Under the pieces are notes generated by a model. That model was not told where the DNA came from. It was given only the letters and a program-made list of their open reading frames with translations, and ran no database searches. The position numbers and the translations under genes are program-made. A stretch of 64,000 nt of DNA from Chloroflexota bacterium. GTDB taxonomy: Bacteria; Chloroflexota; Limnocylindria; Limnocylindrales; CSP1-4. The stretch covers positions 20,567 to 84,566 of the forward strand of contig DAHXON010000001.1 of assembly GCA_027364875.1 (NCBI GenBank). The letters are read 5' to 3'. Position 1 is the first letter of the stretch; every line of letters starts with the position of its first letter. Below, in pieces: positions 1,922 through 6,411 of the stretch.

Positions 1922-3244
<1,323 letters not shown>

Positions 3245-3266
3245 CAAGCCCGCTGCCGGCTTGAAC

Positions 3267-3307
3267 CGCGATTCCGTTCGCTTCCGTCTCCGCGATTGCC
3301 CGTTCGC
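3267..3307 (+). repeat. Direct repeat CGCGATT(N0-2)CCGTTCGC x2, 24-nt period, just after the hflX stop
   Basis: cgcgattccgttcgc at 3267-3281 and cgcgattgcccgttcgc at 3291-3307, read directly from the sequence. Confidence 0.5.
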
Positions 3308-3362
3308 ACCCTCCGGGCGACCCAGAACATCCGTTCTCATACAATCGCCGGAGCCCGAGACT

Positions 3363-3392
3363 GTCCACTACCCGTGTGGGCGGGGAGTGGAC
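3363..3392 (+). other. Strong extended hairpin GTCCACT-a-CCCG-tgtggg-CGGG-g-AGTGGAC in a long non-coding region
   Basis: 7 bp + 4 bp perfectly complementary arms read from the sequence. No T-run follows, so it is not a canonical terminator. Confidence 0.6.
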
Positions 3393-3427
3393 AACCTTCA
3401 AAATGAACGGCCGTGCGGCCAAAACTG

Positions 3428-3561
3428 GTGGATAAGCCTCTTCCTGCGGGCCGCTCCGGACCGTACATTTCGTCTTGCCCGGAGGGGCCAGCGAGATCGA
3501 ACACCAGACCAGCGGTTTCAACTGAAACGGTGAACGGTCTTCGCAAAAGTCTTCGGATCGG
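3428..3561 (+). ncRNA. Copy A of a conserved structured non-coding element (candidate cis-regulatory RNA/sRNA) upstream of ppm1
   Basis: Shares ordered blocks with copy B: GTGGATAAG-N3-CTT, TCT-N-GCCCGGAGGGGCCA, CGAAC, TCTTCGGATCGG. No plausible ORF. Local GC ~60% by hand count. Exact RNA ends unknown. Confidence 0.5.
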
Positions 3562-3905
3562 CAACGGTCCAAGGACCGAGCGATGATCAGGATCCGCGGA
3601 AGGCGGAATGTAGAGGGTTTGGTGGGCGGTTCCGGCAGTGGCCGGAGCGCGGTCCGCCGTTCGAGCGAGAAGTCTTCGGACTCCTTGCCCACGGTGGTCA
3701 GAGCGGCCAGCACACGCGGATCCGTTTCCCGATCGAGACGGTTCCTCCGGGCGCTTTTTTGTGCCCGGAAGACGCGGAGTAGGGGACGCCCGCCGGGCGC
3801 AGTACCGACGCCGGCAGCAGCGCCATCCCGGCCGCGCAGGTCGCCGAGCGGGTAGGGGACAGACGGGTTATCCTCGGCCGCGTCCCAACGAACGCAAGGA
3901 ACGAG

Positions 3906-4661
3906 ATGCCGCCCGTCGCCCCAAGCATCTGGATCATCGTCCCGACGTACAACGAGCGGGACAACGTGGGTCCGATCACCGATGCCATCCTGCAGACCGT
4001 CCCGCAGGCGCACGTGCTGATCGTCGACGACGGGTCTCCGGACGGCACCGGCGAGCTCGCGGACGAACTGGCTCGAGGCAATCCCGCGATCGCGGTCCTG
4101 CACAGGACGCAGAAGCAGGGCCTGGGTCGGGCCTACGTCGCCGCCTTCGAGGAGCTTCTCGCCCGCGGCGCCGACGTGGTGGTCCAGATCGATGCCGACT
4201 TCAGCCATCCGGTCCGCTTCCTGCCTGGCCTCCTGGAGCCTCTCGTGAGCGACCGGGCGGACGTCGTCCTGGGATCCCGCTACGTCAAGGGCGGTCACAT
4301 ACCTCGCTGGAACCTGGTCCGGCGCGTCGTGAGCCGGGGCGGCAGTCTGTTTGCCGGCGTGGTCCTCCTCATGCCGTACCGCGACCTCACCGGGGGGTTC
4401 AAGGCGTGGAAGGCTTCGGTCCTGCGGGACATCCAGCTCGATCGGCTGCACGCCGGCGGCTACGCCTTCCAGATCGAGACCACTTTCCGCGCCCGACTTG
4501 CCGGGGCTCGCGTCGTGGAGGTGCCCATCACCTTCGAGGAACGACGAGTGGGACAGTCGAAGATGACCATGGACATCTTCATGGAGGCCTTCCGCCTGGT
4601 CCTGGCTCTTCGCTTTACCACGCTGCGTCGCCGCCAGAAGAGCATCTTTCCGCTCCACTAG
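3906..4661 (+). CDS. ppm1: Polyprenol-phosphate mannose synthase (GT2, Ppm1/Dpm1-like, catalytic domain only)
   Basis: IWIIVPTYNERDN, VLIVDDGSPDGT, VVQIDADFSH, GSRYV, GGFKAW motifs. AAGGA RBS 6 nt before ATG 3906. Confidence 0.88.
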   Translation: MPPVAPSIWIIVPTYNERDNVGPITDAILQTVPQAHVLIVDDGSPDGTGELADELARGNPAIAVLHRTQKQGLGRAYVAAFEELLARGADVVVQIDADFSHPVRFLPGLLEPLVSDRADVVLGSRYVKGGHIPRWNLVRRVVSRGGSLFAGVVLLMPYRDLTGGFKAWKASVLRDIQLDRLHAGGYAFQIETTFRARLAGARVVEVPITFEERRVGQSKMTMDIFMEAFRLVLALRFTTLRRRQKSIFPLH

Positions 4662-4792
4662 TCCGTCGTACCCGGGGTCCCCGCCCTCAGGACGCACGTT
4701 CTCTTTCTTGCAGCGGTCGCCTTTCCGGGCGGCGATGGCTGTGCAGCGATCGTGGATGTCGGCCTCGTGGACCCGCATCTTTCTCCAAACTC

Positions 4793-4916
4793 GTGGATAA
4801 GGTTCTTGGCGGCGAGACCGCCCTGACCTAGAGTTGTCTCTGCCCGAAGGGGCCACGGACAACCGAACGACTCGACCGATTCTCGGATCGGGCGAACGAT
4901 GCGGAACCGAGGTTCC
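4793..4916 (+). ncRNA. Copy B of the conserved structured non-coding element, upstream of the GT87 gene
   Basis: Same ordered blocks as copy A (4793-4807, 4837-4855, 4864-4868, 4880-4891). Hairpins at 4808-4822, 4833-4863, 4876-4891, 4903-4916. Confidence 0.5.
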
Positions 4917-4940
4917 TTCGGGCGTTCTTGTATATCGCAT

Positions 4941-4982
4941 GCGGCCCGCCGAGGCACCGAGCGCCGGCGGGCCGCTTTTTTT
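4941..4982 (+). terminator. Rho-independent terminator (11-bp perfect GC stem + T7)
   Basis: GCGGCCCGCCG (4941-4951) pairs with CGGCGGGCCGC (4965-4975) around a 13-nt loop, then TTTTTTT at 4976-4982. Confidence 0.85.
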
Positions 4983-5049
4983 CGTCGCCTGCGGCCCGCG
5001 CCCCGGCGCTGCTAACATCGGCATCCTTCGACACCTTGCAGGAGGGAGC

Positions 5050-6411
5050 ATGGCGAAGATGGAGGCCCCGGCGGCGCCGAGCGCGCCCGCGGCGGGAGCC
5101 CGAGGGATATCGGGCGCGATCGCGTCATCGTTGCCGGCGAGTCGGGGAGCTCAGTTCGCCTGTCTCGCGGTCGTGGCCATGGGGATCCCGCTCGCGTGGT
5201 GGGTGATCTCCACGGTCGTTCGCGGCGGCAGCAGCTTCAACGACTACCACGACTTCTACTACGCGGCGCGTCTGATCACTGAAGGCCGTTCGCCATACGA
5301 CATGCACGCCCTCGGACAGCTGGCGACCTCCGAAGGTCAGAAGTTCGTCGTGGGGACGGGCTACTCGTACTTCCTGCCGTTCGCCGTCGCTCTGATACCG
5401 CTGTCACTTCTGCCGTTCACGGCCTCGGTCCTTCTCTTCAACGCCCTGGGGCTCGGACTGTTCGGCGTCACCGTGGCCGCGTGGATCGGCTGGGCGCACG
5501 GTTGGTCGACCGAACTGTTCGGCCGGCGTATCGTCCTCGCGGCCGCCGCCGGGCTCTACCCGTCGGTCTACGGAACGATCGCCAACGGGCAGGCCAACCT
5601 CGTCCTGATGCCGTTCCTGGCGCTCGGTACGGCCGCCGTGCTCGAGAGCTCGACAGGTCGGCGCGCCTTCACGGGCGGCATCGGTGTCGGCCTTGCGGCC
5701 GTCGTCAAGCTCACGCCCGGCCTCTTCGTCGTCCCGTTGGTGATCGCCCGTCGAATGAGCGCCGTGGTGGGGATCGTCCTGGGGATCGCCGGTGCCATTC
5801 TGCTTGCTGCCCTCGCCGTTCCGTGGGCCGGAGAGGGGAGTGGCGGCCTGCTGGCGCTCCTGGATCCCGACCCCTACTTCACCAACCAGTCGATCAACGG
5901 CTTCGTCAGCCGCCTGGTCTTGCGGTCCTCGCGAACCCTGCCGCTCTGGGACCACGCCTTCGACGCCCGGCTGGCGGCCTTCGCGGCCACCCTGACACTC
6001 GCCCTGGCGACCCTCGCGATCCTCTGGGCCGCACGACGGTCGCTGCAGGGCAGGCGCGGCCTCGCCCTCGGTCTGGGCCTTGCCCTGGTCGCAGGCTTGC
6101 TCGGGGCCCCCAAGGGCACGTACTGGAACCAGCTCTTCCTTCTCGTGTCCGCCGGCCTGTTGCTCGCCGTCGAAGCGCCCGATCTGCGGATTCGCCGCCT
6201 CGGCGCACTAGACCTCACGCTGCTGTGCGCATGGCTGGTCGGAACTTCGCTCCAGACCTACTTCTGGATGTATCCATTGCCAATGGCCGGCGATTTCCCG
6301 GCCCTTACGACTCTGCTGACGTCGAGCTCGATCTACGGCGCGCTCGCGCTCTGGCTCGTCCTCGCACGCGGACTCCTCGCGTCGCCGCGTCCGCCAGAGG
6401 AGGGATGGTAG
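5050..6411 (+). CDS. Polytopic GT-C mannosyltransferase, GT87/DUF2029 family
   Basis: GGAGGGA RBS at 5041-5047 then ATG 5050. Multi-TM protein with the NDYHDFYYAARLITEGRSPYD loop typical of DUF2029. Sits next to ppm1. The longer ORF start at 4834 is rejected because of the terminator inside it. Confidence 0.75.
   Translation: MAKMEAPAAPSAPAAGARGISGAIASSLPASRGAQFACLAVVAMGIPLAWWVISTVVRGGSSFNDYHDFYYAARLITEGRSPYDMHALGQLATSEGQKFVVGTGYSYFLPFAVALIPLSLLPFTASVLLFNALGLGLFGVTVAAWIGWAHGWSTELFGRRIVLAAAAGLYPSVYGTIANGQANLVLMPFLALGTAAVLESSTGRRAFTGGIGVGLAAVVKLTPGLFVVPLVIARRMSAVVGIVLGIAGAILLAALAVPWAGEGSGGLLALLDPDPYFTNQSINGFVSRLVLRSSRTLPLWDHAFDARLAAFAATLTLALATLAILWAARRSLQGRRGLALGLGLALVAGLLGAPKGTYWNQLFLLVSAGLLLAVEAPDLRIRRLGALDLTLLCAWLVGTSLQTYFWMYPLPMAGDFPALTTLLTSSSIYGALALWLVLARGLLASPRPPEEGW

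Follow-up and report, generated by a model that had tools for sequence, protein, structure and literature searches.

The spacer between ppm1 and the GT87 gene

The locus studied here lies in a window of 64,000 nucleotides, by which we mean the whole stretch of DNA that was analyzed. Pfam assignments placed HflX at 1922-3244, a ppm1-like GT2 gene at 3906-4661 and a GT87 gene at 5050-6411. Between the stop of ppm1 at 4661 and the GT87 ATG at 5050 there is a spacer of 388 nt, whose folding was more favorable than that of shuffled sequences (z = -2.76 for 4662-5060 and z = -3.66 for 4780-4990). Among the open reading frames crossing the spacer, 4834-6411 lengthens the GT87 frame at its 5' end, and 4658-4957 and 4828-5034 are on the minus strand. 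A coding reading was rejected, given that the alignment contained non-triplet indels and helix-type conservation and that the candidate open reading frames had no Pfam match.

A DNA search of 40 relatives recovered the spacer in 23 of the 24 same-genus genomes, and in these the similarity (75-93% identity) was restricted to approximately 4781-4980 of the window. In a strand-oriented alignment, the conserved elements followed one another in a constant order: a GTGGA.A(AG) box, GTTGGC, a variable spacer of 17 nt, TAgAtT, about 7 nt, a block of 82 nt, a variable linker and a GC stem. Sequence 3' of the terminator was conserved in the closest relative only. When the element was used as a BLAST query against its own genome, the only matches elsewhere were terminator-like GC stems.

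Throughout the genus, conservation starts at the promoter and stops at the terminator, and promoter motifs are found directly 5' of the conserved RNA body. For this reason, positions 4740-4982 probably represent an independent small-RNA gene on the plus strand, with its own promoter and its own terminator (Table 1). Such a gene would most likely be a member of an uncatalogued RNA family of uncultured soil/peat Chloroflexota. The original prediction had left the choice between an independent sRNA and an attenuator or riboswitch for GT87; the conserved promoter upstream and the loss of conservation beyond the terminator speak for the former.

Table 1. Features of the probable small-RNA gene and of its larger paralog (positions in the window)
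Feature	Positions	Strand	Sequence, basis or remark
Large-RNA distal box	3387-3395	+	GTGGACAAC; 41 nt before the proximal box
Large-RNA proximal box	3428-3436	+	GTGGATAAG; 27 nt before the -10
Large-RNA -10	3464-3469	+	TACATT; 41- and 27-nt spacings as in the small-RNA promoter
Branched 276-nt RNA	3477-3752	+	clamp 3477-3489 with 3740-3752, 13 bp as in the small RNA
GC and U6 after the large RNA	3755-3760	+	sequence
TGTGCA box (distal)	4740-4745	+	alignment of 26 genus loci
Distal DnaA-box-like site	4752-4760	+	GTGGATGTC; starts 41 nt 5' of the start of the proximal box
Extra DnaA-box-like site	4767-4775	+	GTGGACCCG; window-specific, not conserved in the genus alignment
Proximal box	4793-4801	+	GTGGATAAG; just 5' of the -35 position
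-35-like element	4806-4811	+	TTGGCG; GTTGGC conserved in alignments
-10	4829-4834	+	TAGAGT; TAgAtT conserved, 17-nt spacer to the -35 varies freely
82-nt hairpin RNA body	4842-4923	+	folding, conservation, covariation
Clamp P1, 13 bp	4842-4854 with 4911-4923	+	GCCCGAAGGGGCC/GGUUCCUUCGGGC; tandem G.U pairs
Heptamer CGAACGA	4864-4870 and 4893-4899	+	both strands of the internal loop; invariant in the genus
Apical hairpin	4876-4891	+	conserved
Degenerate U-rich tail and linker	4924-4940	+	GUUCUUGUAUAUCGCAU; variable length, degraded in the genus
Intrinsic terminator	4941-4982	+	11-bp all-GC stem, 13-nt loop, U7; probable genus-specific 3' end of the small RNA

The terminator itself agreed well with what had been predicted. 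The arm gcggcccgccg (4941-4951), when reverse-complemented, is identical to cggcgggccgc (4965-4975), T7 follows at 4976-4982, and the element begins 280 nt past the ppm1 stop, as originally described; from its end to the ATG at 5050 there are 67 nt. A simple terminator scan passed over this stem solely because its loop range was 3-8 nt and the loop here has 13 nt. On both strands of the 3.83-Mb assembly (68% GC), we counted 26 runs of at least six T, 4 of which were preceded by a perfect stem of at least 8 bp, and the stem at 4941-4982 is the longest of these; a chance origin is far exceeded. The hairpin has an energy of -30.3 kcal/mol, and its pair probabilities were 0.98-1.0 in the ensembles of both 4842-4982 and 4838-4990. 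In sequence as well as in folding, the element thus shows the GC-rich stem-loop and following U-run of an intrinsic terminator. The stem GCGGCCCGCCG...CGGCGGGCCGC was kept in most genus members, and similarity stopped just 3' of it.

Since the element lies 3' of ppm1 on the same strand, and directly after ppm1 in most genus genomes, the hairpins and the terminator might instead belong to the 3' UTR of that gene, possibly as a processed 3'-UTR-derived RNA. We consider this very unlikely: the terminator is too far from the stop codon (the 280 nt given above), and a conserved promoter with a fixed spacing between box and -10 intervenes. Moreover, the RNA was located 1.5-2 kb from ppm1 at four genus loci (L044, L034, L058 and L061), with the promoter still present, and in other genera family members are found without ppm1. 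At L044 the order is ppm1-GT87-RNA, with the GT87 gene sitting between ppm1 and the RNA; similar distances at L034, L058 and L061 suggest the same order there.

Promoter architecture and the DnaA-box question

The layout of the promoter, consisting of a box array, a weak -35 and a -10 of the form TAnnnT, was conserved across a whole bacterial family. The proximal box GTGGA.A was invariant in 20 of 20 and in 26 of 26 genus loci and was conserved in other genera too, and its distance to the -10 was always 27 nt, both in the genus and in other genera. In the alignment of 26 genus loci, the distal block TGTGCAnGAnCCGTGGAnAG was also conserved (GTGG at 90% or more), and CCGTGGAnAG, preceded by TGTGCA, was conserved 41 nt 5' of the proximal box. 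The small-RNA promoter of the window therefore has the arrangement that marks the family, in which a GTGGAnAA-type box precedes the -10 by 27 nt and another box lies 41 nt upstream of the first. Three family members lacking the box had a canonical TTGAC(A/C) -35, whereas the members with boxes had poor -35 hexamers, as would be expected if the promoter depended on an activator. From these motifs we infer that transcription starts at about G4842, 7-8 nt past the -10, which would make the predicted 5' end flush with the clamp.

The identity of the factor that reads the boxes is suggested by their sequence. The DnaA box has the consensus TTATCCACA, and DnaA acts as an activator or a repressor of transcription (PMC8203912). 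We found that GTGGATAAG agrees with TGTGGATAA, the reverse complement of TTATCCACA, at 8 of 9 positions, and that exact copies of GTGGATAAG occur 8 times in the 3.83-Mb genome, including the 2 at the two RNA promoters. With gene identities assigned by Pfam, the other six were distributed over the dnaA-dnaN gap (two copies), the region upstream of rsmG (one), the regions upstream of parA genes (two) and contig C121 (one). The rsmG promoter and one of the parA promoters resembled the small-RNA promoter in having the box, then 27-28 nt, and then TAnnnT, and boxes one and three of the dnaA-dnaN gap are 41 nt apart. The other GTGGAYAAG sites in the window (41845 and 60941) lie within coding sequence and were set aside as unrelated.

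The promoter boxes thus match the organism's own DnaA boxes at the level of sequence. We lean slightly toward DnaA as the factor that binds them, and some other regulator could recognize the same boxes. Activation of the small-RNA promoter by DnaA is what we infer from this arrangement. It resembles known DnaA-regulated promoters (dnaA autoregulation, nrdAB; PMC8203912) in having 9-mers of the TTATCCACA type in or beside the core promoter. However, the targets described in that review are protein-coding, whereas DnaA binding here is predicted from sequence alone; sRNA or other non-coding targets are mentioned 0 times in the review (PMC8203912).

A family of clamped RNAs

The predicted transcript forms a long hairpin closed by the clamp. 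Two G.U pairs of the clamp were invariant in every genus copy, and since they would become C-A mismatches on the other strand, they identify the plus strand as the transcribed one. Among 19 genus copies, the mean column identity of the hairpin was 93% and 99.1% of cells were paired. Covariation within the genus was thin (2 pairs), owing to the high conservation. At the family level, the alignment, which was fitted to a covariance model and hence favors the structure, had compensatory changes in 14 of 28 pairs with 93% of cells paired; none of 500 shuffles equaled this, and slid controls collapsed. The RNA possesses the helix typical of the clamp-RNA family, a 13-bp pairing of both ends of the form GCCCGRAGGGGCC / GGUUCCUYYGGGC with tandem G.U pairs.

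Four additional hairpins had been proposed ahead of the terminator. All of them exist as local complementarity, and the one at 4876-4891 is the conserved apical hairpin, but the other three could not be maintained. Those at 4833-4863 and 4903-4916 are local alternatives that are superseded, on the grounds of conservation and covariation, by the long hairpin at 4842-4923, and the one at 4808-4822 falls inside the variable 17-nt spacer between the -35 and the -10 and is not conserved.

A larger paralog, an RNA of 276 nt, is located upstream of ppm1. Its fold comprises 93 pairs, with 94.5% paired and 23 pairs showing compensatory changes, and was matched by 0 of 500 shuffles; in this case, covariation was taken from 16 genus loci aligned in the ordinary way with MAFFT. 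Nearly every member of the genus had the clamp pattern GCCCGRAGGGGCC twice per locus, with approximately 1.35 kb between the two. A third member of the family is present in the source genome on contig C129.

These data also bear on the possibility that the locus functions as DNA, namely as a DnaA-box cluster similar to datA/DARS of E. coli, with boxes that titrate or recycle DnaA and a transcript that is a by-product or a modulator of their occupancy. E. coli is known to have non-coding regions that control DnaA (PMC4585315). Two or three DnaA-box-like sites at a fixed spacing of 41 nt, equal to that of boxes one and three of the dnaA-dnaN gap, would suit such a function, as would the great rarity of exact boxes in the genome. 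Nevertheless, we regard it as decidedly unlikely. Strong constraint is evident at the RNA level, both in the invariant G.U pairs and in the compensatory changes (14 of 28 and 23 of 93 pairs); family members devoid of boxes retain the RNA and use a canonical -35; and a fixed distance from box to -10 is promoter geometry.

With regard to distribution, a covariance model built from the genus hairpin matched 59 of the 251 class genomes searched, covering 23 of 53 genera. Relatives are spread over one Limnocylindria family and were often tandem pairs 230-1000 nt apart. Of 401 Chloroflexota genomes sampled, 12 contained the exact clamp pattern; all 12 belong to the taxonomic family from which the window comes, and the reversed control gave 0 matches. 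Between genera, the clamp was near-invariant, and the interiors differed in sequence yet covaried by compensatory pairing; across the family, interiors and RNA sizes span 74 to 276 nt. In other genera GUUUUCGUGU comes immediately after the clamp, and the clamp itself appears to act as the terminator there. The tail of the small RNA in the window, GUUCUUGUAUAU, is degenerate; in its place, the genus conserves a separate GC stem, located 17 nt further downstream. The "perfect terminator" of the original prediction is thus best read as a 3' end of the small RNA that is particular to this genus.

Searches of databases and literature returned no described counterpart of the family. Rfam 15 yielded 0 matches over the 64-kb window at the gathering score, and at E<=5 across 3200-5300 the single match was a spurious miRNA (E 3.2) inside ppm1. 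In the literature on Limnocylindria sRNAs or DnaA-controlled sRNAs, we found no description of a clamp-RNA family.

The two inverted arms, GCCCGAAGG and CCTTCGGGC, together with the presence of several copies per genome, are also features of a MITE-like repeat or mobile element, in which the clamp arms would be terminal inverted repeats. This appears extremely unlikely, because only 3 copies were found in the source genome, the position 3' of hflX is retained across genera, arm positions 10-11 are always G.U and not complementary, and the distance from the promoter is fixed for every copy; target-site duplications were not seen.

The genes around the RNAs weaken the riboswitch-like reading. 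The neighbor kept across genera is hflX upstream, and the downstream gene changes: in other genera, the RNAs usually lie 3' of hflX and before genes for PLP-dependent enzymes or metallo-beta-lactamase (MBL) hydrolases. Within the genus, all long open reading frames downstream of the RNA are convergent at L032 and L045, and at L033 the nearest long downstream one is co-oriented and has no family match, with a convergent PIN gene further on.

If the element acted in cis, it would be the 5' UTR of GT87 and the large paralog that of ppm1, and the terminator would be an expression platform, beyond which transcription continues once the leader has been remodeled by a ligand or a protein. The general layout is indeed that of an attenuator or riboswitch, a structured RNA and then an intrinsic terminator before a co-oriented gene. 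Both paralogs precede, in the same orientation, two genes of one pathway (a polyprenol-phosphate-mannose synthase-like GT2 and GT87), and the RNAs of other genera are often upstream of co-oriented enzymes. However, there is no conserved regulated gene. GT87 is upstream of the RNA at L044, the downstream genes are convergent at L032 and L045, and PLP or MBL genes take this place elsewhere; linkage to GT87, the predicted target, is accordingly not kept even within the genus. The sequence from the terminator to the start codon is kept in the closest relative only, and the linker varies in length and sequence. The alternative, antiterminator pairing whose search had been recommended with the prediction was not found: the probability of the terminator is approximately 1, and the folding ensemble contains no helix competing with it. 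In addition, the would-be aptamer interior is wholly different between genera and the clamp is constant, so that no "sensor" is conserved family-wide; a variable interior within a constant clamp is the reverse of the riboswitch pattern. Neither a conserved 5' UTR position, nor mutually exclusive terminator and antiterminator, nor a conserved sensor was therefore observed, and control of GT87 by such a leader seems unlikely. Some read-through into ppm1 or GT87 may occur, both RNAs being co-oriented with the next gene in the window.

Possible mode of action and significance

For the independent small-RNA gene, we propose the following course of events. DnaA, or a regulator of the same sites, bound at about -48/-40 and -89/-81, most likely aids RNA polymerase at the poor -35. 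The RNA output would then be tied to the status of the replication initiator, and the direction of control could be either. The transcript from about G4842 would fold into the clamped hairpin, and termination would take place in part at the degenerate U-rich tail that follows the clamp, with the remaining transcripts ending at 4982, giving RNAs of approximately 90 and 141 nt. Stability of these RNAs is predicted because both ends are buried in helices. GT87 would be transcribed from elsewhere, for which an extended -10, TGCTAACAT at 5010-5018, is a candidate.

The small RNA would act in trans. The likeliest mode, although we hold it at somewhat less than even confidence, is that a protein binds the invariant clamp and that the genus-specific, dyad-like CGAACGA internal loop provides a second contact. 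Recognition by a protein, possibly by a dimer, is suggested because the sequence of the clamp, and not just its pairing, is invariant and because CGAACGA is present on both strands of the loop. Base-pairing with mRNAs appears less likely, since there is almost no conserved single-stranded seed.

Several known systems share some of these properties. Sibling sRNA genes with their own regulated promoter and intrinsic terminator include OmrA/OmrB (controlled by OmpR), Qrr1-5 (LuxO) and PrrF1/F2 (Fur). The clamp RNAs are similar to these in that there are several paralogs per genome, often adjacent, which have the same upstream regulator sites at constant distances, have their ends in common and include a self-contained terminator. 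On the other hand, what they share is a 13-bp helix joining the ends and not a seed, their interiors show no relationship from one genus to another, DnaA is the presumed regulator, and no single-stranded seed of the Hfq type is evident. Y RNAs and bacterial Y-like RNAs, the partners of Ro60/Rsr, have a conserved end helix that serves as a protein handle and an interior that varies. Here too, a helix of the 5' and 3' ends is conserved and the interior module is variable, but the clamp sequence is unrelated and there is no tRNA-like module.

A cell-cycle-linked non-coding RNA whose gene has weak DnaA boxes, CcnA, is known from Caulobacter crescentus; its gene lies within the replication origin and is under the control of CtrA, and the RNA pairs with the mRNAs of ctrA and gcrA (PMC8959179). 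This is a distant analogy only, as there is no resemblance in sequence or structure and the clamp RNAs do not sit at the origin, dnaA-dnaN being found on a different contig (C208). Like 6S and Ms1 RNAs (PMC9130861, PMC4191392), the clamp RNAs are highly structured and have paired 5' and 3' ends. In contrast to 6S, which is a rod of approximately 180 nt with a central bubble, the hairpin of 82 nt falls well below the required length and has no large central bubble, and the 276-nt paralog is branched and not rod-like. Identity with Ms1 was rejected because neither its synteny (oxidoreductase / HAD-IB hydrolase) nor its actinobacterial range fits. RF00013 (6S) had no match in the window, either at the gathering score or at E<=5, nor in the source genome, and in 8 other same-genus genomes it gave one match of 19 bits (E 0.149), far under the cut-off. 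With no Rfam 6S detectable, the 6S niche could be vacant in the genus.

Tentatively, these features could be combined in a broader picture, in which one Limnocylindria family wires diverse RNAs of 74-276 nt to the replication initiator by means of a shared DnaA-box promoter and a 13-bp tandem-G.U clamp. The clamp would serve as terminator, as protection against nucleases and as the handle for a common protein, and a swappable interior would confer the specific activity, here through the dyad-like CGAACGA loop, which might be bound by a dimer. If true, this would amount to a DnaA-gated RNA regulon, an undescribed link between replication status and RNA-based regulation.

For the locus itself, the two mannosylation genes would not be under paired riboswitch-like leaders; they would merely lie beside, or be inserted between, two RNA genes. 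To a large family that is absent from Rfam and whose hosts are abundant and uncultured, the small RNA would add a member that has clear boundaries and a second terminator specific to the genus. Should the boxes be bound by DnaA, the replication initiator would be linked to small RNAs, of which there are few examples, and should the invariant tandem-G.U clamp be a protein handle, an RNA-binding partner would exist. Finally, canonical terminators are extremely rare in this genome, and the cassette may offer a usable definition of promoter and terminator for a clade without genetics.

Intrinsic terminators and clamp RNAs in the genome

Scanning of the whole 3.83-Mb assembly revealed that runs of at least six T were extremely rare (26 on both strands), and that a perfect stem of at least 8 bp preceded only 4 of the 26. 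Judged from sequence, canonical intrinsic terminators seem to be almost unused in this genome; among the few exceptions are two loci, those of the small RNA located before GT87 and of its larger paralogue upstream of ppm1.

A third RNA of the clamp family (74 nt), whose 5' and 3' ends are likewise joined by the 13-bp helix, was found outside the window. Its terminal clamp pair is A-U instead of G-C (ACCCGAAGGGGCC...GGTTCCTTCGGGT), and several GTGGA-type boxes, together with TAGGGT, lie upstream of it. Coordinates of this and other features are listed in the table.

Features in the window, elsewhere in its genome and in a same-genus genome (G005)
Feature	Position	Strand	Genome
Third clamp RNA, 74 nt	C129:23457-23530	+	own
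DnaA-box-bearing site	C208, ~59.5 kb		own
DnaA-box-bearing site	C141, ~9.4 kb		own
DnaA-box-bearing site	C162, ~8.8 kb		own
DnaA-box-bearing site	C127, ~23.3 kb		own
Hairpin 5' of large RNA promoter	window 3360-3397		own
GTGGATAAG	window 3428		own
Extended -10-like motif	window 5010-5018		own
Open GT87 frame	window 4834-6411		own
RF00013 match (locus L141)	C11:60262-60384	-	G005

In the genus, the search for 6S RNA (RF00013) gave a weak match in G005 (19 bits, E 0.149), which lies approximately 2.3 kb from the small clamp RNA of that genome, on the opposite strand, and is probably due to chance.

Putative DnaA boxes in the genome

The probable oriC lies in the dnaA-dnaN gap on contig C208, where boxes occur at 0, +21 and +41. 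Putative DnaA-box promoters also precede rsmG and each of two distinct parA-parB pairs; thus, there are two parAB loci in the assembly.

In the window, a hairpin (GACTGTCCAC...GTGGACAACC) precedes the promoter of the large RNA, and its arms hold an inverted pair of sites resembling DnaA boxes (TGTCCAC / GTGGACA). Of these arms, the one on the right constitutes the distal box and is spaced 41 nt from GTGGATAAG.

Linker, downstream zone and GT87 start region

In many genus members (alignments A2 and A10), CCGUCAC occurs once or twice in the single-stranded linker between clamp and terminator and could possibly serve as a seed or binding motif; the linker in the window lacks it. Downstream of the small RNA, three loci from relatives in the genus (L033, L032 and L045) have a variable zone with PIN-domain, DUF6602 and unknown genes, and the matching zone in the window is occupied by GT87.

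The stretch from the terminator to the GT87 start codon contains an extended -10-like motif, TGCTAACAT, which is a candidate promoter of GT87 itself and was kept only in the closest relative (L053) in the genus alignment. The GT87 frame is open for 216 nt upstream of ATG 5050, across both the RNA and the terminator. This upstream extension is an artefact of high GC content and could mislead gene callers.
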